DNA of 64,000 nt from an uncultured Acidobacteriota bacterium (GCA_963725145.1 CAVRXL010000010.1:410693-474692), one strand, 5' to 3'. Positions 8,373 through 30,252 are shown, numbered from the stretch's first letter. Translations and numbers: made by a program. Notes: generated by a model from the letters alone, not told the origin.

Positions 8373-11300
8373 TCATTGCGCCGCCTCGGGCGACGGCAGG
8401 GCGGCGAGCAGGGCGGGCTGCGCTTCGGCGCGGGCGCGCTTCATCTCGAAGTGCCACTTCCAGATTTCGTAGATGGCCGGGTAGACGACGAGCTCGAGGA
8501 CGAACGACGTGAGGATGCCGCCAACCATCGGCGCGGCGATCCGCTTCCACACGTCGGACCCGGTGCCGGTGGCCCACATGATCGGGAGGAGCCCGAGGAA
8601 CGTCGTCGCCATCGTCATGAACTTCGGGCGCAGCCGCTTCGCGGCGCCTTCCACGATCGTCGCCTGGAGATCGGCGAGCGTTCGCAGGCGTCCTTCGCGC
8701 GACGCCTTCGCGTACGCGAGGTCGAGATACAGCAGCATGAAGACGCCGGTCTGGGCGTCGACGCCGAGCAGCGCGATCAGCCCGACCCATACGGCGATGC
8801 TCATGTTGTAGCCGAGCAGGTACAGGAACCAGACGGCGCCGACGGCCGAGAACGGCACGGCCAGCAACACGATCGCCGTCTTCACGAGCGACCGCGTGTT
8901 CAGGTACAGAAGCACGACCACGAGCAACAGCGTGAACGGGATGATGTACGCGAGACGCGCACGCACGCGCGCCATCGCTTCGTACTGGCCGCTCCAGAGC
9001 ACCGCGTAACCGGGCGGCAGCTTCACCTGCTCGCGCACGACGCGGCTCGCCTCGTCCACGTAGCTGCTGATGTCGCGGCCTGCGACGTCCACGAAGACGT
9101 ATCCGGTGAGCAGCCCGTCCTCGTTGCGGATCATCGCGGGTCCTGTCGCGACCTTCACGCGCGCCAGCTCGCCGAGCGGGATCTGCCGCTGCCCATCCGA
9201 CGCCGGCACGAGCACGCGCGCGATCGCGTCGGTGTCGGACCGGAAATCGCGCATGTAGCGGACGTTCACCGGATACCGCTCGCGCCCCTCGATCGTGGTG
9301 GTCACGTTCTCGCCGCCGATCGCGTTCTGCACCACGCCCTGCGCCGCCTCGACGCTCAAGCCGTAGCGCGCGAGCGCGTCACGGTTCCATTCGATGTCGA
9401 GGAAGAACCCGCTGCCGGTGCGCTCCGCGAACACGTTGCGCGTCCCGCTCACGGAGGGAAGCGCCGCCTCGATCGCCGTGCCGATCTTCTCGATCTCGGC
9501 AAAGTCCGCCCCGGAGATCTTCAGCCCGACCGGCGTGCGGATGCCGGTCGTCAGCATGTCGATCCGCCCCTTGATCGGCATCGTCCAGGCGTTCGAGACG
9601 CCGGGATACGTCAGGGCCGCGTTCATCTCCTCGACCAGCTGTTCTTCCGAGATGTGATCGGGCGTGACGTGCCGGAGCACGCGCTTGATCCACTCCGGCG
9701 CCCACCCGGAGTACCACGTCTCGACCCGGCGCCACTCGGACGTGGGCTTGAGCGTGATCACCGTCTCGAGCATCGAGAGCGGCGCGGGATCGGTGCTCGT
9801 GTCCGCGCGCCCCGCCTTGCCGAGCACACGATCGACCTCGGGGAACTGCTTGATGGCACGGTCACTCACCTGCACCAGCTTCTGCGCCTCGCCGATCGCA
9901 ATGCCCGGCATCGTCGTCGGCATGTAAAGAAGCGATCCCTCGTAGAGCGGCGGCATGAACTCCGATCCCAGGCGCGTGAACACCGGCACCGTGACGACGA
10001 CGAGGGCTGCGGCGCCGCCGATGACCGCCCATTTCCACCGCAACGACCAGCGGACGACCGGCTCGTACATCTTCATGAGGAAGCGGCTGATGGGATGCGA
10101 CTCCTCGGAGCGGATGCGGCCGACGAGCACCGCGTTGGTCACCCGGCAGAGCCAGGCCGGCCGGAACTCGAAGCGCCGCACGCGCGTGAAGAGAACACGC
10201 AGCGCGGGGTCGAGCGTGATCACGAGGCCCGCCGCCACGAGCATCGTGAGCGTCTTGGTGTAGGCGAGCGGCTTGAACAGCCGCCCTTCCTGCGACTCGA
10301 GCGCCAGCACCGGGAGAAACGACACCGCGATCACGAGCAGCGCAAAGAAGCTCGCCGGCGCCACCTCCTTGACCGCCTCGAGGACAACCTTGTGATAGTC
10401 GCGCGTCGATCCGTCGCGCTGCGCCTGCTCGAGCTTCTTGTGGGTCTGCTCCACGACGACGATCGCCGCGTCCACCAGCTCGCCCATCGCGATCGCGATG
10501 CCGCCGAGCGACATGATGTTCGCCGTGATCCCCATCGCGCGGAACGGGATGAACGCCACGAGCACGGCAACCGGAATGGTGATGAGCGGGATCAGCGCGC
10601 TCGGCACGTGCCACAGGAACAGCAGCACGATGAAGACGACGGCGAGCACCACCTCGACGAGCGTCTCGCTCACGTTGTCGATCGCGCGGCGGATCAGCAC
10701 CGAGCGGTCGTAGATGGGGACGATCTCCATCCCGGACGGCAAGCCCGGCTCGATCTGGCGGATGCGCTCCTTGACGCGATCGATCACGTCGACCGCGTTC
10801 TCCCCCTGGCGCATCACGACGATCCCCGACACCACTTCGCCGGCGCCGTCCAGATCCGCCACGCCCCGCCGCAGATCCGGGCCGAGCGTTACGTGCCCGA
10901 TGTCGCGGACCCGGATCGGCGTGCCGCTCTCGCTGGCCGTCACGACGATGCTCTCGAAGTCGGCGACCGACTTGGCGTACCCGCGGCCGCGCACCATGTA
11001 CTCGGTGCCGCCGAACTCGATGAGCCGACCGGCAGTCTCGGCGTTGCCGCCGCGCACAGCCTCGACGACCCGCTGTATCGAGAGGCCGTAGTTGCGCAGC
11101 CGGTTCGGGTCGACGTTCACCTGGTACTGCCGGCCGAAGCCACCGACCGAGGCCACCTCGGACACGCCGGGCACCGCCTTCAGGTAGTAGCGCAGGTACC
11201 AGTCCTGGTACGACCGCACATCCGCCAGGCTGTGTCTGCCCGAGCGGTCCACGAGCGCGTACTGGAACACCCAGCCGAGACCGGTCGCGTCGGGCCCGAG

Positions 11301-15799: not shown

Positions 15800-16555
15800 C
15801 TATCGCGTATTGACGATCAGGCCAAACAAGAGGTAGTCGACGGTTCTACTGCCGTCACTGGTCTCCCACATGTAGGATGGCTGGAAGAACACGCGCTTGT
15901 TGAGTGGCAACGTGACGCCAGTCCAAACGCGCACTCTGTTCCATCCACCATCCTGCTCATAGTAGGTTTCGTATGCGGCAAAGGGCTTCCAGACGTGCCC
16001 TCGAACCGTGAGGGGATGCGCGATCGCAATTTTTCCGCGGTAACGGTTCGTATCGTTCGCTGGCACTGGACGGAACCGTCTGACATACATGTTGCGGCCG
16101 GAGATCTCGAACTTGCGAACGGAGAACGCCACGGTTCCGTCAATTCGAAACTGGTGCTCGTCGTAGCTGTCGGTGAATCGTCCCGGCTGCGGCGGCAGCT
16201 TATTGAGCCCGCTTGCAGGAACCGAGTAATACATGTAGCTGGGAGTCACCGTCAGAAACTTTGCCGTCCGAATTGGAACGTCAACTTGTGCGACTGGTGT
16301 GTCTAATCTGCCGATGTAAAACCCATACAGTTTCAGATCGATCTGTTTCTGCACCGGGGTACTCAGCACCATCCAGGCCGAAGGCGCGAAGAGTGCGCCA
16401 CGTCCATCGCCTGGATCGGGTACAGCAGGTACAGTAGGTGGGTCTACGTTTTCTTGGGCAGCACACGGTGCGCCGAGCGACATCAAACAGACCACCAGAG
16501 CACTTGGCACGAGATACCGCGCAGACCTTGTGAACCCTCGCATAACCATCTCCAC
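15800..16555 (-). CDS. Putative outer-membrane beta-barrel protein (DUF2490-like); function unknown
   Basis: 251-aa ORF with a signal peptide (..LVVCLMSLGAPCAAQ). It has alternating-hydrophobicity strands rich in Y/F/W/R (KLYGFYIGRL, FLTVTPSYMYYSV, FEISGRNMYVRRF, FFQPSYMWETS). It ends 40 bp upstream of the tyrosinase start. The family call is from memory only. Confidence 0.6.
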   Translation of the reverse strand: MEMVMRGFTRSARYLVPSALVVCLMSLGAPCAAQENVDPPTVPAVPDPGDGRGALFAPSAWMVLSTPVQKQIDLKLYGFYIGRLDTPVAQVDVPIRTAKFLTVTPSYMYYSVPASGLNKLPPQPGRFTDSYDEHQFRIDGTVAFSVRKFEISGRNMYVRRFRPVPANDTNRYRGKIAIAHPLTVRGHVWKPFAAYETYYEQDGGWNRVRVWTGVTLPLNKRVFFQPSYMWETSDGSRTVDYLLFGLIVNTR

Positions 16556-17890: not shown

Positions 17891-20800
17891 ATGGATCCTC
17901 GCCGACCGCGCCTCCTTCGTATCACCCGGGCCTGCGCCACGGCTGCGGCCAGCCTGAGCTCGTTGCTCATCTGCGTACTCGTGTCGGCGGGGCCCGCCTA
18001 TGGCTTGGATCCGGATAAGCGAGTCACTCAGTACATTCACACGTCCTGGCGAATTCAGGATGGCTCGCTGCCGGCCGGCATGTTCTCGATCACCCAAACC
18101 TCCGACGGCTTTCTCTGGTTGTTATCTCTCCCAGGCGAGGTCTACAGGTTCGACGGTGTTCGGTTCGTACGTTGGCCTGTCCCTCCCGGTCCTTCAGGGA
18201 AGGTCTTTGCCGACAGCGCCGGCGGTCTCTGGGTAACCGCGACAGAGCTCGTTCACCTGAAGAATGGGGTTGTCGCTTCTCATTTCGAGTTGGCAGGCAC
18301 TCACGGGTTTCAAAGCATCAGCGAAGATCCTGAGGGCACTGTGTGGGTCGGGCTACGCGGAGAAGACGCGCCGCTCTGCAGCGCGAGCGACCACGGGGTC
18401 AAGTGTTTCGGAAAGAGCGATGGGCTTCCGCTTAGCGAGATCAATGCGGTGCTGCCCGATGGCAGCGGTGGCTTATGGCTGGGAGGATCGACCGCCCTCG
18501 TTCGCTGGAACCGTGGTGGTGTGTCCGAGACGTACCCGGTCAAAGCCCCCATATCGAGTCTGGCCCGCACGCCCGATGGAACGCTCTGGGTGGGCCTGTC
18601 GGAGGAGGGACCAGGGCTGGGGCTTCAAGAGCTAGGCGACGGTGTTCTGAAGACCTTCGTCACCCCGCACTTCGACGGAAGCAAAGTCAGCGTCACCAGT
18701 CTGATGGTGGATCGTGACGGCAACCTCTGGGCCGGCACCGATGCTAGCGGTGTCGTTCGTATCCATGGAGACGCCGTCGAACGCTACCGTCAGACGGACG
18801 GCCTTTCCGGCGATTCCGTGTGGGCCCTGTTTGAAGACCGTGAAGGCATCGTCTGGGCGGGAACCACGAGCGGCATAGACAGCTTCCGCGATCCGCGTGT
18901 CGTCACCTTCTCGGCTGTACAAGGGTTGGGAAAGGATCTGGCAGCCGGCATTCTGGCCAGCCGAGACGGCACGCTCTGGGTGGCAAATCACGGGTCGCTC
19001 GACCGGATCAGGAACGGGACGGTCACATCCATCGACAGCAGCAATGGTCTTCCGGGGAACCAAGTCGCCGCCATGCTGGAAGACCGCGCCGGCAACATGT
19101 GGGTAGGAGTGGACGACGGACTGTATCTCTTCAAAGATGGGCGATTCCGTCGTCTGCCGGAACCAGACCACCAGCCGCTCGGAATGGTGGTTGGACTGAC
19201 CGAGGATGTCGACGGAAATATCTGGGCAGCATGCGGCAGACCAAGAAAGCTCGTGCGAATACGCGATTTCCAGGTGCGCGACGTGTTCACTGCCGCGCAG
19301 GTTCCGCCTGGATCTCATCACCTTGCTCCGGACCCACACGGAGGGATTTGGATCGCGACATCAACAGGAGACGTCGTGTTGATGCGGAACGGCACGGTCG
19401 AAACGACGATTCCGCTCGATCCCAGAAGTTCTCCGTTGAATCGGCACATCGTCGCTGGCGCAGATGGCTCCGTTCTCGTCGGCTCCGAAAACGGTCTGCT
19501 GGGCTGGCGTGCGGGCAAAGTCCGGCGGATGACCACGAAAAACGGCCTGCCCTGCGACTTCGTCATCGCGTTCATTCAGGACACGGAACAGCAGTGGTGG
19601 CTGTATACCCGCTGCGGTGTCGTGGGCTTCCCGGACGCTGAGCTCCAGAAGTGGTGGGCGAACCCGGATGCCATGATTCGGAACCGCGTCTACGATGCGT
19701 TCGACGGCGCCCAGCCAAACATCGGTTCTTTCAACGCAGCGGCGTCGACTTCCGATGGGCGCGTGTGGTTCTCCAGCGGAGTCGTCGTACAGATGCTGGA
19801 CCCGTCCAGGATCTCGCAACCAGCCAGGCCGGCGGCAGCTTCCGTCGAGTCCGTGATCGTCGACCGAGAGGAATTCGCGGCTGTTGACAACCTCGAGTTT
19901 GGCCCGCACCCGCGCGACTTGCAGATCGACTACACGTCGCCGACCTTCTCGATCCCACAGAAGGTCAAGTTTCGCTACAAGCTCGATGGCTTCGACGCCG
20001 GTTGGCATGAAGCCGGTCTGCGGCGGCAGGCGTTCTACACCGATGTGCCCCCGGGGAAGTACACGTTCCGCGTGATGGCGGCCAACAGCGACGGCGTCTG
20101 GAACGAGCGCGCCGCAACCCTGAAGTTCTCCATCGCTCCGGCGTACTACCAGACGACCTGGTTTCGCGCAGTGTCCGCGGTTGCGTTCGTGGCGCTCCTA
20201 TGGGCGGCGCACCGGTATCGGATGCGCCATGTGCAACAGTCGTTTGCTCTGACGCTCGAGGCACGGGTCGGAGAACGCACGCGAATCGCACGGGAGCTGC
20301 ACGACACGCTGCTGCAAAGTTTCCACGGTGTGTTGCTGCGCTTTCAGACGGCGTCGTACCTGCTGTCGGAACGCCCGGCAGAGGCGAAAGAGAAACTGGA
20401 TGACGCGATCGAACATGCGGCGAACGCAATCACCGAAGGCCGCGACGCGGTGCAGGGCTTGCGGACGTCAACCATCGAACGGAACGATCTGGCCAAGGCG
20501 ATCAGAACGCTCGGCGACGAGCTCGCGGCCAACGCGAGTGACCACCCTCCTTCCGGCTTCCACGTCGTTGTCGAGGGGGAGCCGAGGGATCTGCACCCGA
20601 TCGTGCGTGACGAGATCTACAAGATTGCTGCGGAAGCACTTCGGAATGCCTTCCGGCACGCGCATGCCGGACGGGTCGAGGTCGACATCCGCTACGACGA
20701 CGAGCAATTCCGATTGCGCGTGCGCGACGATGGCAGGGGGATCGATCCGGCGGTGCTCGCCAACCAGGGTGTGGAGGGACACTACGGCCTGCGCGGCATG

Positions 20801-20980
20801 CCGGAACGCGCCGCGCTGATCGGAGGGAAACTGGCGGTGTGGAGCGAAGCGGGCGCAGGGACGGAGGTGGAGCTGCGCCTTCCTGCGGGCATCGTTTACG
20901 CGACATCCCCGAGACGCACCTGGTGGTCACGGCTCCTGGCACCTAAGACGCCGGCTAACGTCCGAGGAGACGCGTCCTGA
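17891..20980 (+). CDS. Sensor histidine kinase: periplasmic two-component-regulator propeller repeats, Y_Y_Y domain, TM segment, HisKA_3 and HATPase_c
   Basis: The ORF-track start at 17492 overlaps the preceding OMP gene, so the in-frame ATG at 17891 is preferred (MDPRRPRLLRITRACATAAASLSSLLICVLVSAGPAYG). Repeated ..DG.LW.G.. blades are present. The Y_Y_Y-like block is KFRYKLDGFDAGWHEAGLRRQAFYTDVPPGKYTFRVMAANSDGVWN. The TM segment is WFRAVSAVAFVALLWAA and the H-box is ARELHDTLLQSFHG. The ATPase blocks read EALRNAFRHAHA..DDGRGID..GLRGMPERAALIGGKL. Confidence 0.9.
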   Translation: MDPRRPRLLRITRACATAAASLSSLLICVLVSAGPAYGLDPDKRVTQYIHTSWRIQDGSLPAGMFSITQTSDGFLWLLSLPGEVYRFDGVRFVRWPVPPGPSGKVFADSAGGLWVTATELVHLKNGVVASHFELAGTHGFQSISEDPEGTVWVGLRGEDAPLCSASDHGVKCFGKSDGLPLSEINAVLPDGSGGLWLGGSTALVRWNRGGVSETYPVKAPISSLARTPDGTLWVGLSEEGPGLGLQELGDGVLKTFVTPHFDGSKVSVTSLMVDRDGNLWAGTDASGVVRIHGDAVERYRQTDGLSGDSVWALFEDREGIVWAGTTSGIDSFRDPRVVTFSAVQGLGKDLAAGILASRDGTLWVANHGSLDRIRNGTVTSIDSSNGLPGNQVAAMLEDRAGNMWVGVDDGLYLFKDGRFRRLPEPDHQPLGMVVGLTEDVDGNIWAACGRPRKLVRIRDFQVRDVFTAAQVPPGSHHLAPDPHGGIWIATSTGDVVLMRNGTVETTIPLDPRSSPLNRHIVAGADGSVLVGSENGLLGWRAGKVRRMTTKNGLPCDFVIAFIQDTEQQWWLYTRCGVVGFPDAELQKWWANPDAMIRNRVYDAFDGAQPNIGSFNAAASTSDGRVWFSSGVVVQMLDPSRISQPARPAAASVESVIVDREEFAAVDNLEFGPHPRDLQIDYTSPTFSIPQKVKFRYKLDGFDAGWHEAGLRRQAFYTDVPPGKYTFRVMAANSDGVWNERAATLKFSIAPAYYQTTWFRAVSAVAFVALLWAAHRYRMRHVQQSFALTLEARVGERTRIARELHDTLLQSFHGVLLRFQTASYLLSERPAEAKEKLDDAIEHAANAITEGRDAVQGLRTSTIERNDLAKAIRTLGDELAANASDHPPSGFHVVVEGEPRDLHPIVRDEIYKIAAEALRNAFRHAHAGRVEVDIRYDDEQFRLRVRDDGRGIDPAVLANQGVEGHYGLRGMPERAALIGGKLAVWSEAGAGTEVELRLPAGIVYATSPRRTWWSRLLAPKTPANVRGDAS

Positions 20981-21090: not shown

Positions 21091-21584
21091 AGCAAGCGGG
21101 GCTGGCGCAGTACCGAAAGGCCTCTGAGCTCTTCGGCTACGAGCGTGGCCCCGGCGGGTAGTTCTTGAACATCTTCTCCGTCGCCTTCGCGCGCCGTTAG
21201 TTCGGCGGTCCCGCGGCCTGCCGGGTTATCCCAGGGACGCTCGAGGATCGTGGCGCCTTCCACGAGCCGGCCGTTACCGTCCGATTCGCAGACTTGCCGC
21301 CGGCCTCCGTTGGTGCCTTTGGCAAGACCGAAGCCAGCTTCGCTCCGTTGCGCGAGTCCCTCCAACACGGCTGGCATTCCGTTCGACCGGATGTGCGTTG
21401 ATGCGTGTGATCGCGCATGGCGTGCGCCAACGCGCAGTACGGAGGCCCGTCGTTTCGTCGGACTACCGAAGAAAAGCAGGTTCGGGGACAGCAGATGTCC
21501 ATGTGACGCACGGGCTCGGTGCTGCTCGCGCAGCGTGGCGTGGATGTTGCCGTGGCCCGGTGCAGCGCCAAAGGAGGCGTCGTC

Positions 21585-21794
21585 ATGTCACAAACGGGTG
21601 TTGGAAACGTCGTCGAGCAGCTCCTCACGGATGAGAACCTTCGCATCCGATTTGCGCTCGATCGGATCGAGACAGTCGCCGAGCTCTGTCTGCGAGGTTT
21701 CGATCTCAACCGGGAAGACATCGACCTGTTTTGCCGGACGGATGCTCGTCTGTGGTTCCTGGGTGACATCGCGAGAGGCGAACGGCCGCAGTGA
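21585..21794 (+). CDS. Small stand-alone protein (69 aa), hypothetical, with a weak Nif11/NHLP-like helical pattern
   Basis: The ATG at 21585 follows AAAGGAGG with 7-nt spacing. The product is MSQTGVGNVVEQLLTDENLRIRFALDRIETVAELCLRGFDLNREDIDLFCRTDARLWFLGDIARGERPQ. A GC hairpin lies directly after the stop. The family resemblance is pattern-level only. Confidence 0.55.
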   Translation: MSQTGVGNVVEQLLTDENLRIRFALDRIETVAELCLRGFDLNREDIDLFCRTDARLWFLGDIARGERPQ

Positions 21795-21822: not shown

Positions 21823-22161
21823 GGTGGCCGACGCGAGATCACACGCGAACCCGTGCCCCTCACACTCGCCCCCCCTTTGCCCCAGCCTCCGGTTTTTCTC
21901 CACGACGACCGCCTCGTTTGAAAACGCACGTACCGTGTGCCACGACGCACCCGCCCGCGACGGACGATGAGTGCTCATGCACCCGAGCGCGAGAACGAAC
22001 CGGTCGATCTGGGCCGCGTTCCTCGAAAAGTGACTGCGGCACGCGACTGGGCGCTCGGCGCTGTGCGCAGGCATCACCTTTGCCCTTGCGTGCACCGACC
22101 GCAGCGCGGTGATGCGCCATCGGTCACAGACACGCACGGAGAAGGTCGCTTGGAGGACGAT

Positions 22162-23397
22162 ATGCCCGCTGTTCGCTGTTCCGTTGTCAGACCTGTGTGC
22201 GGTGCCGCATTGCTCGCGGCCGCCACGATGTTCCTGGTGCCCCCGGGCCAGGCGATGGCCCAGGAGACCAGGGGGGAAATCATCCGCCAGGAGCAGGCGG
22301 ACAAGCTGCGCACGGTCACGCCGCCAGAGCCGAACGGCGCGGAAAAAATCGTGTACCGGCTCGAAGACTGGGGATGGCTCACCGGCGAGCCCCATGGGGT
22401 ATATCCGCTGCTCGACTCCGTCTATCCCGGCGGCGGCTTCGCCGCCGGCCTCGGCGCGCGGAAGCCGTTCGGGGACGACGGCGCGATCAGTGTGATCGGC
22501 GCCTATTCGATCAAGAGCTTCTGGCGGGCGCAGACGGACGTGTCGCTGCCGACCTTCGCCTCGAACCGCGGCCGGGTGTCGCTGACGGCTCGCTACCTGG
22601 ACGCGCCCGATGTGAAGTACTACGGCATCGGCGCGGACTCGGACAAGGACGACAAGACGTTTTTCGGCTACACGCCGTGGGGAGGAGGCGGACGTCTCGA
22701 CTTCGACGTCAGCCGGTATTTCTCCGTCGGCGGCGGCGTCAACTACATCGACATCGGAACCGATTCAGGCGCCACCGGGCCGTCGATCGAGGAACAGTTC
22801 TCACCAGCCGACACCCCGGGGCTCGAGCTCGACCAGTTCAAGTACGTCAACAGCACCGCGCGGGCGGTCGTCGACTGGCGGCGACAGCTGGGCTACTCGG
22901 GCACGGGCGGGCTGTACCGGGTCCAGTTCGATGACTTCCGCGAGAACGACAACAACCAGTACTCGTACCGCTCGCTCGAGGCGGAGGTGGTACAGCTGAT
23001 TCCGCTGATGCGGGCCAACTGGGTCATCGCCTTGCGGGGTCTCACGACCATCACCGACATCGACGAGGCCGAAGCAATCCCGTACTTCATGCTCCCAGCC
23101 CTGGGCGGGGGCAAGACCCTGCGAGGGTTTCCGGACTTCCGGTTCCGCGATCGCCATCGCCTGGTCATGAACGCGGAGCTGCGATGGACCCCCGCGCGCT
23201 TCCTCGACATGGCGATCTTCTATGACGCCGGCAAGGTCGCGGCGCAGAAAGGGGATCTCGATTTCCGCGATCTGGAGGACTCGTACGGGATCGGCATGCG
23301 GATCATCGGTCTGAAAGGCTACGCGTTCAGGGTCGAAGTGGCGCACAGCCGGGAGCACGCCGCGCGTCTCCTCGTCAGCGCCGGAGGAGCATTCTGA
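22162..23397 (+). CDS. Omp85/D15 (bacterial surface antigen) family outer-membrane beta-barrel protein, short form (~411 aa)
   Basis: The ATG at 22162 lies inside ORF 21937..23397 and follows GGAGGA. The signal peptide is MPAVRCSVVRPVCGAALLAAATMFLVPPGQAMAQ. Barrel-type strands include ..FMLPALGGGKTLRGFPDFRFRDRHRLVMNAELRW..FYDAGKV..YGIGMRIIGLKGYAFRVEVAHS..LLVSAGGAF, ending in a terminal Phe. Confidence 0.8.
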   Translation: MPAVRCSVVRPVCGAALLAAATMFLVPPGQAMAQETRGEIIRQEQADKLRTVTPPEPNGAEKIVYRLEDWGWLTGEPHGVYPLLDSVYPGGGFAAGLGARKPFGDDGAISVIGAYSIKSFWRAQTDVSLPTFASNRGRVSLTARYLDAPDVKYYGIGADSDKDDKTFFGYTPWGGGGRLDFDVSRYFSVGGGVNYIDIGTDSGATGPSIEEQFSPADTPGLELDQFKYVNSTARAVVDWRRQLGYSGTGGLYRVQFDDFRENDNNQYSYRSLEAEVVQLIPLMRANWVIALRGLTTITDIDEAEAIPYFMLPALGGGKTLRGFPDFRFRDRHRLVMNAELRWTPARFLDMAIFYDAGKVAAQKGDLDFRDLEDSYGIGMRIIGLKGYAFRVEVAHSREHAARLLVSAGGAF

Positions 23398-25107
23398 TGA
23401 TGAGCAACGCAAGCAGGGGACGTCAGGGGCTGGTCGCGCTGGCGTGTGCCGTCGCCGTGACGGTGACGGCAGGAGCGGGCGCGAACGGCCAGAAGTTCTA
23501 TCCCGACGATCCGATCACGCGGATCGTCGACGCAGAGGGCGCGTCGGACGTGCAGGAGCGGGAAATCGATCTGGAGTATGACACCCTCGAGAACCTGTTC
23601 TACCTGGCCCGGCGACCAGACGCCGAACGTCCGCGCGCAGAACCTCAACACGATCGATGAAGTGCCGGACTCGACCTGGTTCACGAACCGGCTGGGGACT
23701 GTAGCCGTCACGGTCGACGAACTCGTCAAAGGGCCGGGGTCCGGCGCCGGCCCGGCGCCGGGCGGCTTCACGGTGATTTCGGCCAAGAACGATGGCGTGA
23801 TGCCGGGGTTCACCGTGCGCGATTCCGCCGGGCAGGTCTGGTTCATCAAATTCGATCCGCCAGGCTATCCGGCCATGGCGACTGGCACGGAGGTCCTCGT
23901 CGCCAGGCTCTTCTGGGGGCTGGGCTATCACGTGCCGGAGACGCACCTGGCGACGCTGCGGCCCGAGGAATTGACGATCGACGACCAGGCCCGCATCAAA
24001 TCGCCGAGCGGCAACCGGCGTCGCTTCAAGGAATCGGATATCCGGCTGCTGCTGCGCAGAGCGCACCGCGAGTCCGATGGATCGTACCGCGTCGTCGCCA
24101 GCAAGGCGCTCGAGGGGCGGCCCGTCGGTGGTTTCCGGTTCTACGGCACGCGGTCCGACGATCCCAACGATGTGGTCCCCCACGAGCATCGTCGCGAGCT
24201 GCGGGGCTACGGGACCTTCTCCGCCTGGCTGAACCACGTCGACTCGAAGTCCATCAACACGCTCGACACGGTCGTCGAGCAGAACGGGAAACACGTCGTC
24301 CGTCATCACCTGCTGGATTTCGGATCGACGATCGGGAGCGCGGGAGTCTATCCGCGCGAGGCGTACGAAGGCTTTGAGTACCTCGTGGAAGGCAAGAAGG
24401 CACTGGCCGGCATGCCGAGCCTTGGGCTCTACGTCAAGAACTGGCGGACGATCCCGCTGTATCGTGCAAAATCCGTCGGCGCCTTCCCCATCGACAACAC
24501 GAAGTGGGATCCCGAGCGGTGGAAACCCCGCTACGCCAATTCCGCGTTCCGATCGGCGCGCCTGGACGACAAGTTCTGGGCCGCGCGGCGGCTCCAGGCA
24601 TTCACCGACGAGATGCTGAACACGCTCATCGGCGTCGGCCGGTTCAACGATCCGAAATCCGAGGAGATGCTCTCGAAGTTCCTGATCGAGCGCCGCGACG
24701 CGATTCTCCGTCGTTATCTTCCGGCCGTGAACCCGGTCGTCGACGTGCGCCTGTCGCCGTCGGGTACCTTGACGTTCCGGAACGCCGCGGTGGATGCCGA
24801 CGTGGCGCACGCGCCCGCAGAATACGTCGTGGTCTGGCAGCGGTTCGACAGTGCGACCGGCACGACGACGAACCTCGGCGAGACCCGCGCGTCGGCGACG
24901 AACGTCAATGCGCCGAAGGATCTTCCTGCGGCAGCGAGCACGTATATCCGTGTCGAGATTTCCGCCAACGGCGGGCCGGAGAGCTGGACGGAACCCGCAC
25001 ATGCTTACTTCCGGCGCGAGGCGGCTGGCTGGACGCTGGTCGGCTTCGAGCGTGTGCCGGGCGGCAATCCGCCCGGAAGCAAGGACGCCAGGCGCCGGAC
25101 TAATTAG
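23397..25107 (+). CDS. Exported hypothetical protein with a protein-kinase-like motif set. The frame is broken once (~23605-23613).
   Basis: ORFs 23397..23660 and 23578..25107 form one gene. The ATG overlaps the Omp85 stop (TGATG). The signal peptide is MMSNASRGRQGLVALACAVAVTVTAGAGA. The pieces join as ..DTLENLFYL / GDQTPNVRAQNLNTIDEVPDSTWFTNR. Ordered kinase-like motifs are GQVWFIKF, TEVLVARLFW, AWLNHVDSKSINTLD (H-x-D-x-K-x-x-N) and HHLLDFGST (DFG). Confidence 0.8.
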
Positions 25108-25109
25108 TT

Positions 25110-25131
25110 CCGAGGGGCTTTCGCCCCTCGG
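25110..25131 (+). terminator. Putative terminator hairpin
   Basis: The stem CCGAGGGGC / GCCCCTCGG has loop TTTC and starts 3 nt after the TAG stop. No clear U-tract follows. A second palindrome (GGCGCGCC-TGT-GGCGCGCC) lies about 60 bp downstream. Confidence 0.45.
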
Positions 25132-25288
25132 ACTCCCCTACGCCGTCGCTCGCGGGGGCCCCGATGCCCCGCTCCGCTCCGGCGGGCGCGCCTGTGGCGC
25201 GCCTAACTGAGGTAAGTGCGATGAGCGCTCGGGAACCATGCCGCCGGCACCACGTCGTGATCGTCGCTGCGGATTCGAAGGAGACAAG

Positions 25289-25696
25289 ATGCCACGAAAG
25301 ATTGCGTACTGGGGAGCCACAGGTCTAGTGGGGATCGTGACGCTGTTCGCCGCCTTCAGCTATCTGACCACCACCCCCGAGGCGGTCGAGAACTTCCGGC
25401 ACGTGGGATATCCCCAGCAGTTGCGTGTCCTGCTCGGCATCGGGAAGCTGGCGGGAGCCATCGTGCTGCTCCTGCCACGGCTGCCGACCTTGAAGGAATG
25501 GGCCTACGCAGGCTTTACCTTCATGTGGATCGCGGCAGTCGTGGCGCACTATCTGGCGGGCGACGGGGCCTTGTCCTTGCTGCCCGTCGCGTTGCTCGGG
25601 TCGCTGGCGGTTTCGTACGTCACGCGCTCGGCGAATCGCGGCGGTTCCGCGAAGGCGACACGATCGCTGAAGGAGAGACGACCTGGGGAGCCATGA
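25289..25696 (+). CDS. DoxX-like family membrane protein
   Basis: The ATG at 25289 lies inside ORF 25238..25696 and follows AAGGAG. The product MPRKIAYWGATGLVGIVTLFAAFSYL..FRHVGYPQQLRVLLGIGKLAGAIVLLLPRLPTLKEWAYAGFTFMWIAAVVAHY has four hydrophobic segments and a DoxX_2-like pattern. Confidence 0.75.
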   Translation: MPRKIAYWGATGLVGIVTLFAAFSYLTTTPEAVENFRHVGYPQQLRVLLGIGKLAGAIVLLLPRLPTLKEWAYAGFTFMWIAAVVAHYLAGDGALSLLPVALLGSLAVSYVTRSANRGGSAKATRSLKERRPGEP

Positions 25697-25750: not shown

Positions 25751-27670
25751 CTACGAGGCCTGGTCGGGGTCGGCGGTCAGTAAACGCGCCGCGGCCGCCT
25801 CCATGCGGGCCGCGTCAACCGGCTTCGACATGTAGTCGTCATAGCCGGCGACGATCGCCCGATCGCTGTGCCCGGTGTACGCGCTGACGGCAATGGCAGG
25901 GATACGTCGCACCTTCGGATCCGGAAGGCTTCGGACAGCAGCGATGAGCGCATACCCGTCCTGGCCCGGCATGCCGAGATCGGCCAGCAGCAGATCGAAC
26001 GAGCCCGACAAGAGGAGCCGTATCGCGTCGCCCGCCGACGTGGCGGTCACGACCGTCGCACCGGAGCGCTCCATCATGTGCTTCAACAGGTCGACCGCAT
26101 CCGGCTCGTCGTCCACGATGAGCAGGCGAGCCCGCTCGACGGCCCGCAGCGGGGAGCGGCGCGCCGACTCGTGTGTGTCCTGGCCGACGGCCACGATGCC
26201 TGTGGAACCCAGCGGAAGCGTCACGGTGAAGGTCGCGCCAAGGCCGTCACCAGGGCTTTCGGCCGATACGGTTCCGCCGTGGGCCTCGACGAGATATTTG
26301 ACGATCGTCAGCCCGAGTCCAAGGCCTCCATGCCGGCGCGTGGTGCTCGTGTCCGCCTGGCGGAACCGTTCGAAGACATGCGACACGAACTCGCGGCCGA
26401 TGCCCTGCCCGGTATCGCTGACCACGATCTGCGCGTGCGCCCCGGCGCGTTGAAGCCGGAGCTCGATCCGGCCGCGCTCCGGCGTGAACTTGATCGCGTT
26501 CGTCAGCAGGTTCCAGACCACCTGGTGCAGGCGGCCCGCATCGCCGGTGACGAAGCGCGCCGACCGATCGAGCTCGACCGCCAGCACGATCCCCTTGGCG
26601 TCCGCCGCCGGGCGCACGCTGTCGGCCGCGCCGGCGAGGACCGTCGCCAGGTTCACGCGATCGGGGTTCAACCGCAGCTTGCCCGTGATGATGCGCGAGA
26701 CGTCGAGGAGATCGTCGATCAGGTGGACCTGGAGCGTCGCGTTGCGCTGGATGACGTCGAGCGCCCGCCGGATGGTCGCTTCGTCGGTCTGAGGGTCGCG
26801 GACGATGTGGGACCAGCCGAGGATCGCGTTGAGCGGCGTGCGCAGCTCGTGAGACAGCACGGCGAGAAATTCGTCCTTCAGACGGTTCGCCGCCTCGGCC
26901 TCGGTGCGCGCTTCTCGTTCGGCGGCGAGCAGCCGCTCGCGGTCCCCTTCGGCGCGCTGTCGATCGACGAGCGCATCGCGCAGCGACTGCTCGAGCTTCT
27001 CGCGTTGCGCGATCTCCGCCTCGAGCGCGCGCGCGCGCTGCTGAAGGCGGCTGATCTCCCGCGCCTTGCCATCGTCACCAGCGGCCTGCGTGTAGCTCTC
27101 CGCGGGAATCACGTGCGTGTGCGTCCGGCACATGTCTCGGAACTTTTCCGCGTGCGCTTCCTTGTAGAAGCTTCCCATCGCGTACGCGCAGAGCAGCGAG
27201 AACGAATGCGTGCGGCCCAGGTCGTTCCAGAGCTCCTCCAGCCGGATGGCGCCGTCGACATTCTGCTCGCGCCAGAGAAGGTCCACCATCTCGCCATACG
27301 CCCGCGCGGTGGTCTTCCGCCCGCCGAGGCTGCGCTCGATGACCCCGCCCACGAGCCTCCGGAATCTGCGCGGGTCGGGTTGATTGCCGTCCATGAAGGC
27401 CGACAACGTTTCTCTCGCGTCGAGGAACAGCAGCTGACCCGCGTCGAGCAGCCCGTCGAAATCGAGTCCCTTCGCCTCGAGACGCGCCTGAAAGGCTTCC
27501 CGATGCGGGGCCGTGGCGATGGCGATTGCGGGCTGACCAGCCTTGAGCCCGTCCGCCAGGAACGTGGCCACAGCGTTCGAAAGGTAGTCGTCGCTTTCGT
27601 AGAACTGGACGATGTGGTCGTGCCGCGCGCCGGGAAAGTTGAGGAGAGAGCCGCTCGTCACTGATTCCAT
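25751..27670 (-). CDS. Hybrid sensor histidine kinase / response regulator with an N-terminal MEDS domain
   Basis: Within ORF 25751..27685; the ATG at 27670 is preferred. The MEDS block is ..HDHIVQFYESDDYLSNAVATFLADGL... A coiled coil is followed by the HisKA H-box FLAVLSHELRTPLNAILGW. HATPase blocks read NLLTNAIKFT..DTGQGI..GGLGLGLTIV. The receiver domain reads LLIVDDEPD..LLLADLGMPGQDGY..SKP. Confidence 0.9.
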   Translation of the reverse strand: MESVTSGSLLNFPGARHDHIVQFYESDDYLSNAVATFLADGLKAGQPAIAIATAPHREAFQARLEAKGLDFDGLLDAGQLLFLDARETLSAFMDGNQPDPRRFRRLVGGVIERSLGGRKTTARAYGEMVDLLWREQNVDGAIRLEELWNDLGRTHSFSLLCAYAMGSFYKEAHAEKFRDMCRTHTHVIPAESYTQAAGDDGKAREISRLQQRARALEAEIAQREKLEQSLRDALVDRQRAEGDRERLLAAEREARTEAEAANRLKDEFLAVLSHELRTPLNAILGWSHIVRDPQTDEATIRRALDVIQRNATLQVHLIDDLLDVSRIITGKLRLNPDRVNLATVLAGAADSVRPAADAKGIVLAVELDRSARFVTGDAGRLHQVVWNLLTNAIKFTPERGRIELRLQRAGAHAQIVVSDTGQGIGREFVSHVFERFRQADTSTTRRHGGLGLGLTIVKYLVEAHGGTVSAESPGDGLGATFTVTLPLGSTGIVAVGQDTHESARRSPLRAVERARLLIVDDEPDAVDLLKHMMERSGATVVTATSAGDAIRLLLSGSFDLLLADLGMPGQDGYALIAAVRSLPDPKVRRIPAIAVSAYTGHSDRAIVAGYDDYMSKPVDAARMEAAAARLLTADPDQAS

Positions 27671-27825
27671 GATGTCGTCCCGCACTACAGCCCTGTCCCC
27701 GATCGCGTCACGAGCGCGCGCCGGGACCCATTACCGAATCACTGCGTTTCGGCCGCTTTCAGCGGTCCAGGTCGAGAGCCTGGGGAGACGGGGGCCCACT
27801 ATAGCAAGAAGCGGGCCTCCGGGCG

Positions 27826-30252
<2,427 letters not shown>

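Follow-up and report, generated by a model that had tools for sequence, protein, structure and literature searches.

The locus described here lies in a stretch of 64,000 nucleotides from an uncultured Acidobacteriota bacterium (GCA_963725145.1 CAVRXL010000010.1:410693-474692), called the window below, and comprises two translationally coupled genes on its plus strand: one for a predicted outer-membrane barrel of the Omp85 superfamily (gene 1) and one for a Sec-exported, atypical protein-kinase-like (PKL) protein (gene 2). A first-pass annotation of the window had noted an Omp85-type barrel of ~411 aa, a TGATG overlap between its stop codon and the start codon of the next gene, and a ~570-aa downstream protein with a Sec signal and a set of kinase-like motifs in the canonical order. 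All of this was borne out: the barrel gene was found at 22162-23397, the overlap is present, the downstream protein measures ~569 aa including a signal peptide of 29 aa, and each motif stands at its expected place. The features of the operon are listed below; residue and model numbers of the PKL protein are those of its homologue P0004, the window numbers being one higher (D281 = window D282).

22152-22157 (+): Shine-Dalgarno-like GGAGGA 5' of the barrel gene, from the sequence
22162-23397 (+): gene 1, predicted Omp85-superfamily outer-membrane barrel, 'noNterm' type; ATG at 22162 to TGA at 23395-23397, 411 aa
22162-22260 (+): barrel Sec signal peptide, 33 aa, ending ...GQAMA before QE, from the sequence; model helix 10-25
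23119-23130 (+): loop-6 LRGF, Omp85 lid-lock motif, residues 320-323, from the sequence
23218-23232 (+): strand-13 FYDAG, the FxDxG lid-lock partner, residues 353-357, from the sequence
23383-23399 (+): coupling junction, GGAGGAG at 23383-23389 and TGATG at 23395-23399, from the sequence
23397-25107 (+): gene 2, predicted Sec-exported atypical PKL protein, ~569 aa without the extra base; reads 23397-23601, then 23603-25107 in the next frame
23397-23483 (+): PKL Sec signal peptide, 29 aa, MMSNASRGRQGLVALACAVAVTVTAGAGA before NGQKF (...AGAGA, then NGQKF), from the sequence
23602 (+): inserted A splitting gene 2, from the tblastn frame jump, DNA alignment and homologues reading ENLFSWPGDQ
23647-23691 (+): family-specific N-terminal motif NTIDEVPDSTWFTNR, from the sequence and homologue conservation
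23839-23856 (+): WFIKFD, beta3 strand, with the VAIK-type Lys as AAA at 23848-23850; model strand 146-151
23890-23892 (+): alpha-C Glu of TEVLVARLF; model helix 159-174
24145-24207 (+): most conserved block of the family, GTRSDDPNDVVPHEHRRELRG, directly before the catalytic loop, from homologue conservation
24232-24258 (+): catalytic-loop motif NHVDSKSIN, of the form HxDx[K/R]xxN, after model helix 265-277
24316-24324 (+): DFG motif, after model beta-hairpin 287-304
24736-25053 (+): predicted C-terminal beta-sandwich domain, model strands 446-551, with partial FN3-type Foldseek matches
25106-25134 (+): GC-rich hairpin over the last two bases of the gene 2 stop codon, without a U tract (-22.5 kcal/mol, z = -3.8), likely the operon end

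At the junction the A of the barrel's TGA is also the A of the gene 2 ATG, with GGAGGAG lying 8 nt 5' of the gene 2 start, and related loci have a similarly short or overlapping junction. As assembled, gene 2 is broken into a signal-peptide frame (23397-23660, 87 aa) and a second frame open from 23578 to 25107 (509 aa). Its homologues are unbroken proteins of 560-573 aa that read ...ENLFSWPGDQTP... over the junction; in tblastn the homologue residues 1-67 fall on 23400-23600 and residues 68-568 on 23602-25104; and a DNA alignment to three related genomes (L002, L003 and L005) contains one extra A at 23602 (GTTCT[A]CCTGG against GTTCT-CCTGG). Because the homologues are continuous, the frame jumps and a single extra A is seen in the DNA alignment, the frames around 23605 make up one gene of ~569 aa, gene 2, interrupted by one inserted base, as had been supposed.

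Is the extra A an assembly error or a very recent inactivating mutation? It is either the one or the other. If the A is real, the gene would be dead in this genome, where only the 87-aa signal-peptide fragment and an unexported, cytoplasmic remnant of 509 aa could be made. We regard this as rather unlikely. The one-base difference from three related genomes and the tblastn frame jump speak for it, as does the position of the insertion outside any long homopolymer. On the other side, the remaining 1.5 kb of gene 2 is open, 92-96% identical to intact relatives and free of a second lesion, the barrel gene is intact, and single-base indels are common in long-read assemblies, from which many related metagenome-assembled genomes derive.

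Barrel protein and kinase-like protein

Compared with Pfam, the window barrel protein matched no family at E<=1, and the NCBIfam model NF047779 (Omp85_fam) reached 65 bits (E 7e-18) over residues 264-399 only, under its cut-off of 200. We detected 544 barrel homologues; PF01103 is on record for most of them, and some sources name them BamA. An AlphaFold (AF2) model built on an alignment of 83 homologues consists of a signal helix, two short helices and 16 strands (predicted local distance difference test score, pLDDT, 69; predicted template-modelling score, pTM, 0.65). In Foldseek this model matched the BamA barrel 6qgw at E 1.7e-10 and BamA barrels at template-modelling (TM) scores of 0.51-0.59, with 109 matches at E<=1e-3. 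No POTRA domain was found in the barrel protein: the ~45 mature residues before strand 1 form two helices, without a beta-alpha-alpha-beta-beta unit or a POTRA match in Pfam. In the alignment of 83 homologues A33 and Q34 of the signal-peptide region, R321 and G322 of LRGF, and F353, Y354, D355 and G357 of FYDAG are invariant. The loop-6 RG[F/Y] lid-lock motif is a documented Omp85 feature (PMC11358297). Because of its 16 strands, the absence of POTRA, the BamA-barrel match and the LRGF and FYDAG lid-lock motifs, the gene 1 product appears, as modelled, to belong to the 'noNterm' class of the Omp85 superfamily, and to be neither BamA, TamA nor TpsB. This class of barrels without an N-terminal periplasmic domain was defined by Heinz and Lithgow in 2014 (PMC4104836).

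The POTRA-less 'noNterm' Omp85 proteins, among them LIC12252/12254/12258 of Leptospira (PMC4104836, PMC11358297), share with the window barrel the 16 strands, the RG[F/Y] and FxDxG lid-lock motifs and the lack of POTRA, and their genes, like gene 1, are often followed by one for an exported partner. However, the partner of gene 1 is a predicted kinase-fold enzyme rather than an adhesin-like lipoprotein, and the pairing is obligate over two phyla. A DUF5982 region over the first two strands marks the Leptospira/Cytophagales subset of the class. DUF5982 was not among the Pfam matches of our barrel (none at E<=1), the presence of a DUF5982 model in the Pfam copy used being unconfirmed.

For the kinase-like reading frame no model of Pfam or NCBIfam was matched. 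Pkinase (PF00069) gave no match to the PKL protein at E<=1 and none at E<=10 to four homologues, and against all PDB sequences (phmmer, then a 102-sequence profile) there were chance matches only, for example to armadillo repeats and CPSF5. One homologue, P0476, matched HipA_2 of Pfam in its N-lobe only, at 26.8 bits (E 3.8e-6) against a threshold of 27; the other homologues tested stayed at E>=0.17. Aligning the profile of the Omnitrophota clade to E. coli HipA with hhalign gave nothing, a weak test given its single-sequence target.

The AF2 model of P0004 (full-length, 92% identical to the window protein, diverse alignment) has a pLDDT of 94.2 and a pTM of 0.92. Its elements follow each other as three N-lobe strands with the Lys of WFIKF ending the third, the long helix with the Glu of TEV, later a helix and the NHVDSKSIN loop, a beta-hairpin, the DFG motif, a helical C-lobe and a beta-sandwich. 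Among PDB structures the top Foldseek match was CtkA of H. pylori (3akk; E 1.7e-4, probability 1.00, target TM 0.50), followed by Fam20C, Fam20, Rio2, PI4KII-alpha, HipT, HipA, PINK1 and IRE1, almost only kinase folds. In the viral library phage proteins annotated as ADP-ribosyltransferase, as portal or without function (E ~1e-6) came first, and then giant-virus Ser/Thr kinases. As modelled, the PKL protein has a bilobal kinase-like fold with Lys, Glu, Asp, Asn and the DFG Asp in canonical order, and its likeness to kinases is remote yet consistent over libraries and methods. The top viral matches, A0A516M4V9, A0A4D6E245 (Gordonia phage GodonK) and A0A6B9L6W7 (Mycobacterium phage Onyinye), all at probability 1.0, are actinophage proteins of 1,000-1,500 aa; the aligned region covers ~350-470 columns and is presumed to be kinase-like.

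HipA/CtkA-like kinases (CtkA 3akk, HipA/HipT) are the best structural matches, HipA_2 is the family of the marginal N-lobe match, and CtkA works outside the cytoplasm of the cell producing it, as the PKL protein would. However, the PKL protein has no significant sequence relationship to them, its catalytic loop HxDx[K/R]xxN is in the style of eukaryotic-type kinases, and it adds an N-terminal wrap, the DDPND/HEHRRELR block, a C-terminal beta-sandwich, a signal peptide and an Omp85 partner. The secretory-pathway kinases Fam20C and Fam20B share with it the kinase fold, the signal peptide and a non-cytosolic compartment, and Fam20 is among the top structural matches; Fam20 enzymes have proteins as well as glycans among their substrates. 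In contrast to these, the PKL protein is bacterial, matches at a TM of ~0.3, has linked to it in relatives an exchanger of the TLC/NTT type (see below) and is paired with an Omp85 barrel that has no eukaryotic counterpart. In the lumen of endoplasmic reticulum and Golgi the ATP for Fam20-type kinases is brought in by an antiporter, which offers an analogy to the module proposed here.

Conservation was assessed in ~370 homologues: ~119 close ones, diverse representatives at 50% identity, and 118-119 of an Omnitrophota clade, given in this order below. The quartet K150, D281, N286 and D306 is present together in 118/119, 95/131 and 114/118 of them, which is beyond what chance would give. Taken singly, the VAIK-type Lys is kept in 119/119, 109/136 and 116/118, the alpha-C position is E or D in 119/119, 111/137 and 119/119, the catalytic-loop Asp is found in 118/119, 122/146 and 119/119, the Asn in 118/119, 127/146 and 118/119, and the DFG Asp in 119/119, 138/143 and 117/119. 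The Gly in the beta1-beta2 loop is conserved as well. The kinase motif residues are kept down to ~30% identity and in a second phylum. Family-specific positions are similarly stable in an alignment of 102 sequences: of the N-terminal motif NTxDEVPDSxWFTNR, W93 is kept in 97/102 and R97 in 100/102 (R97 is near-invariant in all three homologue groups), and of the acidic-basic block GTRxDDPNDxxPHEHRRELR, which canonical kinases lack, D257 and R265 are invariant and R251, D253, D254, N256, H261, R264 and R268 are at >=90%. Taking fold model and motifs together, we consider the gene 2 product to represent a new family of the PKL superfamily, and probably one with catalytic activity.

The homologues also share the n-region, h-region and AGA-NG pattern of the signal peptide. 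A lipoprotein type of signal peptide was considered and rejected, the Cys not being conserved, and a conserved C-terminal beta-signal for docking was dropped, the C-termini differing between the clades. One clade (P0294, P0329, P0353, P0378 and P0288; loci L082, L083 and L086) carries a shared C-terminal extension of 200-600 aa (mutual E 1e-20 to 1e-107) without a match in Pfam, and at L086 the next gene (8544-9521) resembles, by eye, the end of this extension.

The PKL protein might instead be a non-catalytic partner, a pseudo-enzyme that stands in for POTRA on the periplasmic side of a BAM/TAM-like machine for assembly or lipid handling. The barrel does retain BamA-type lid-lock motifs, and PKL folds have often been put to new use as scaffolds (bioRxiv 10.64898/2026.09.18.752743). 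Among the diverse representatives, 36/131 lack at least one quartet residue in the alignment. TamA has a separate periplasmic partner (PMC4494059). TamA/TamB indeed resembles our pair in joining an Omp85 barrel with a separately encoded periplasmic partner of the same operon; however, TamA has three POTRA domains, and TamB, anchored in the inner membrane, is an AsmA-like protein for lipid transfer and has no kinase fold. We nevertheless judge a non-catalytic role highly improbable: 96-99% of the sequences in the two well-sampled clades retain the quartet, conservation extends to the alpha-C Glu and the beta1-beta2 Gly, and the module has links to genes for nucleotide supply (TLC and PPK2) in the loci described next.

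Pairing and accessory genes in related genomes

The PKL family is large, with more than 7,300 matches among 8,000 candidates scored, every database name being 'hypothetical protein'; 3,564 representatives at 50% identity reach E<=1e-3, and 937 of them E<=1e-30. Searching GTDB with a 17-sequence subset of the diverse PKL alignment, we obtained 80 loci, mostly in metagenome-assembled genomes of Vicinamibacterales and other Acidobacteriota, with several copies per genome. A barrel homologue lies directly upstream on the same strand in 77 of the 79 loci that have an upstream flank, in 63/63 Acidobacteriota loci with full context (at least 4 kb either side), and in 7/7 divergent loci (32-37% identity, GC 46-67%). 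A metagenome scan seeded with the Omnitrophota clade added 72 loci, with the barrel in 45 of 47 that have >=1.3 kb upstream and in 29/29 Omnitrophota-like loci with full context. Across 118 loci the pairwise distances of barrel and PKL proteins correlate at r = 0.93 (0.83 and 0.94 within clades; in a Mantel test 0/999 permutations were as high). As the correlation holds overall and in each clade, the two proteins diverge together, paralogues included. From sequence comparison we infer that barrel and PKL protein work as a pair, and that the PKL protein would dock on, or be handled by, its cognate barrel at the outer membrane. At L161 and L166 two weak and partial PKL relatives (29-39% identity, 220-270 residues) lack an upstream barrel gene, and may represent remoter paralogues able to act without one.

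For the interpretation given in the first-pass annotation four tests had been named, namely a non-kinase fold, loss of the motif residues, homologues away from Omp85 genes, and two genuinely separate frames; none went against it. The Foldseek matches are protein-kinase-like with nothing else of note, and the remaining points are dealt with above. The remark that neither protein could be placed in a characterised system also stands, as shown by the lack of a family model for the PKL protein and its purely hypothetical names.

Clustering of flanking open reading frames, all against all at E 1e-10, yielded no other universal neighbour of the PKL gene, and it missed two less frequent ones, TLC and PAP2, because they are divergent. 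The first clue to PAP2 was a PKL-PAP2 fusion, P0363, and the first clue to TLC a distant Omnitrophota locus; both were then confirmed by targeted searches. P0363 (782 aa) has a kinase-like region at 7-440, a low-complexity linker and PAP2 at 644-754; it may be a genuine fusion, or a frameshift may have joined two genes. A PAP2-family phosphatase gene stands beside the pair, after the PKL gene or before the barrel gene, in 14/63 Acidobacteriota loci. A homologue of the TLC ATP/ADP transporters (PF03219) stands beside the pair at 13/63 loci of Acidobacteriota and at 23/29 Omnitrophota-like ones. Ten TLC sequences were tested: with PF03219 each of them exceeded the threshold of 21 bits, at 36-65 bits, and 9/10 scored better with it than with the generic MFS model. 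Omnitrophota-like loci also encode a DUF5329 protein (PF17263; 20/29), with a lipoprotein-type lipobox on inspection, and a signal-anchored CX5R phosphatase with the motif HCKRGAERTG and an N-terminal membrane anchor (5/29, in one arrangement). A PPK2 polyphosphate kinase gene (Pfam E 1.6e-69) lies between the PKL and TLC genes in two Acidobacteriota loci (L076 6598-7521, L058 6659-7573) and just upstream of the barrel gene in two others (L045 2840-3658, L033 3372-3701). All accessory products except PPK2 appear to be envelope proteins, since signal peptides, lipoboxes or transmembrane segments were seen on inspection.

The order of these genes varies. With bar and kin for the pair, duf for DUF5329, pap for PAP2 and ptp for the CX5R phosphatase, at least six orders with TLC occur: tlc-duf-bar-kin, ptp-bar-kin-tlc-duf, duf-bar-kin-tlc, bar-kin-tlc, tlc-bar-kin-pap, pap-bar-kin-tlc and others. 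In Acidobacteriota there are four-gene modules in which TLC and PAP2 flank the pair in either order (L029 2148-7692, L077 2705-7984, L056 2901-8029, L031, L032 and L011). Functional coupling would lead one to expect this, accessory genes that are kept while their order is shuffled. At the Omnitrophota loci L084 and L089-L094 the module always comes after the housekeeping cluster (EPSP-synthase-family gene)-rpsP-trmD-rplS-rnhB-UPF0102. Five distinct loci have rpsP-trmD-rplS-rnhB ahead of the module, a neighbourhood that argues for a core rather than a mobile function.

These genes bear on how the pair might work. Two-partner secretion (type Vb, TpsB/TpsA, FhaC/FHA) likewise has an Omp85 barrel and a Sec-exported partner in one operon, paired one to one, and the barrel could be a dedicated translocator that takes the PKL protein to the surface or the medium, in a two-partner- or type-V-like manner, as an effector, toxin or surface enzyme. 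A barrel gene followed by the gene of an exported partner is the TpsB/TpsA arrangement, the best structural match, CtkA, is a secreted kinase of H. pylori, and Cys is almost absent from mature PKL proteins (none in 104/114 and 86/115), as it is from type V passengers; POTRA-less Omp85 genes of Leptospira are, moreover, followed by genes for surface lipoproteins (PMC11358297). However, the barrel lacks the POTRA that would receive a substrate, and the PKL protein gave no Pfam match to a TPS domain, whose absence had been noted before; in the model its N-terminal region packs onto the kinase-like core. The partner is, as modelled, a compact multi-domain globular enzyme of 570 aa and not a long, extended beta-helix. 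The accessory genes (TLC antiporter, PPK2, membrane-bound phosphatases) point to the periplasm and its chemistry, and the module has a housekeeping neighbourhood in Omnitrophota. Hence we consider secretion of this kind unlikely.

The TLC/NTT family includes NTT-HEAT fusions (Major et al. 2017, PMC5381601); the accessory transporter of our loci matches the same model, PF03219, and its Omnitrophota versions carry a C-terminal HEAT domain, as in the widespread NTT-HEAT clade. Characterised NTTs are importers that bring host ATP into intracellular parasites or plastids (PMC5381601). In the loci studied here, by contrast, TLC (which the window does not contain) shares an operon with genes for envelope proteins, and the lineages are mostly free-living; this suggests ATP export. 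One could instead suppose nucleotide scavenging, with the barrel as an outer-membrane channel, the PKL protein as a periplasmic nucleotide-binding or -processing factor and TLC importing external or host ATP. Besides the known importers, the frequency of TLC in the Omnitrophota-like loci would fit such a role, and ATP/ADP translocases of Omnitrophota have been read as symbiosis factors that scavenge host ATP (PMC10066038). However, metagenome-assembled genomes of free-living soil bacteria of Vicinamibacterales type are rich in the core pair, each with several paralogues, and most of these loci are without TLC. A protein that merely binds nucleotide would have no need of the catalytic Asp, Asn and Asp, yet they are conserved, and a phosphorylation cycle accounts better than uptake does for the phosphatases and PPK2. 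We therefore hold scavenging to be improbable.

A candidate phosphotransfer system of the envelope

On this evidence we think it slightly more probable than not that the PKL protein and its cognate Omp85 barrel form an undescribed phosphotransfer system of the cell envelope that is fed with cytoplasmic ATP. From its sequence and neighbours we infer that the PKL protein would be a true ATP-dependent phosphotransferase acting outside the cytoplasm; the TLC, phosphatase and PPK2 neighbours in relatives favour a real ATP-using enzyme of this sort. In the mechanism we propose, an inner-membrane antiporter of the TLC/NTT type would, where it is encoded, exchange cytoplasmic ATP for periplasmic ADP, and in a few loci PPK2, encoded beside it, could regenerate the nucleotide from polyphosphate. 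The barrel-docked PKL protein might then modify lipids or glycans of the envelope, or else a protein of the outer membrane or periplasm. The modification would be undone by exported phosphatases, PAP2 in Acidobacteriota and the signal-anchored CX5R enzyme in Omnitrophota, where the DUF5329 lipoprotein would also belong to the module. As to the substrate, lipid phosphates are frequent targets of PAP2 and of atypical CX5R phosphatases, and among the structural relatives there are both non-protein kinases (Fam20B, PI4KII) and protein kinases (HipA, CtkA, Fam20C). A position on the periplasmic face rather than the cell surface is favoured for the PKL protein, because ATP delivered by the transporter would be there.

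More tentatively, with slightly less than even confidence, it might be possible that ATP-dependent phosphorylation takes place in the periplasm or outer membrane of at least two diderm phyla, with ATP export by TLC/NTT, a top-up by PPK2, a barrel-docked kinase and reversing phosphatases.

Several points weigh against the proposed system. The likeness of the PKL protein to kinases is no better than a TM of 0.5 at 8-14% identity and has no link by sequence profile, and the confidence of the barrel model (pLDDT 69) is only moderate. The 64-kb window contains no TLC, PAP2 or PPK2 homologue, and DUF5329 and the CX5R phosphatase were not found in it either; 43/63 Acidobacteriota loci are likewise core-only, and the ATP source is therefore unexplained for most of them. 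The window copy is in addition frameshifted, so that its signal peptide is parted from the enzyme as assembled. Periplasmic ATP would leak through porins. Some NTTs move NAD or nucleotides other than ATP, and the outward direction of ATP transport by TLC is presumed. Moreover, the TLC/NTT relatives of free-living bacteria are uncharacterised (PMC5381601).

Searching the literature on an Omp85-kinase system, on periplasmic kinases and ATP, on DUF5329 and on new PKL families, we found no description of the module, of the enzyme family or of DUF5329; a structure-based survey from 2026, on new PKL families of the oral microbiome, deals with other families (bioRxiv 10.64898/2026.09.18.752743). On the strength of sequences and models we rate the combination of an exported, putative kinase-fold enzyme with a POTRA-less Omp85 barrel and, optionally, TLC, phosphatases, lipoprotein and PPK2 as a candidate system that has not been described before.

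The periplasm and outer membrane are generally held to lack ATP, and envelope machines borrow energy from the inner membrane. A predicted exported enzyme of kinase fold whose catalytic set is intact, linked to an ATP/ADP-type antiporter, to phosphatases of two unrelated folds and sometimes to PPK2, would be a genomic signature of an extracytoplasmic phosphorylation cycle. If this were true, it would counter the working rule that there is no ATP-driven enzymology in the periplasm. It would also give a role to the NTT/TLC proteins of free-living bacteria, which are at present taken for signs of energy parasitism, as in Omnitrophota, and likewise to POTRA-less 'noNterm' Omp85 barrels. The large unnamed PKL family (~3,500 clusters at 50% identity), with its several copies per genome in soil Acidobacteriota, would then be explained. 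The window holds one minimal, frameshifted copy, the core pair alone, and its value lies in the family reached through it. Cultured Vicinamibacteria exist (Vicinamibacter, Luteitalea), and the barrel and PKL proteins are small enough for biochemistry.

Other genes of the window

The 1.2-kb gap before the barrel gene contains a small putative open reading frame (21519-21794, plus strand, 69-91 aa) without a Pfam match. Directly downstream of the operon lies a DoxX_2 membrane protein gene (25238-25696, plus strand), and nearby there are a MacB_PCD/FtsX permease (27826-30252, minus strand) and a DUF2490 protein (15800-16555, minus strand); none of these three is conserved beside the pair elsewhere. 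Sensor histidine kinases, Ser/Thr kinases, MacB-type permeases and TonB-type receptors were considered as parts of the module and rejected, each being found in <=12/81 loci and common in these genomes. In the window a Reg_prop/Y_Y_Y/HisKA_3 sensor kinase is encoded upstream of the pair (17906-20980, plus strand) and a MEDS-HisKA-HATPase-REC hybrid sensor kinase downstream of it (25751-27685, minus strand), and PAS/GAF hybrid kinases occur ~3 kb downstream in 12/81 related loci; the sensor kinases flanking the pair are probably common gene content.

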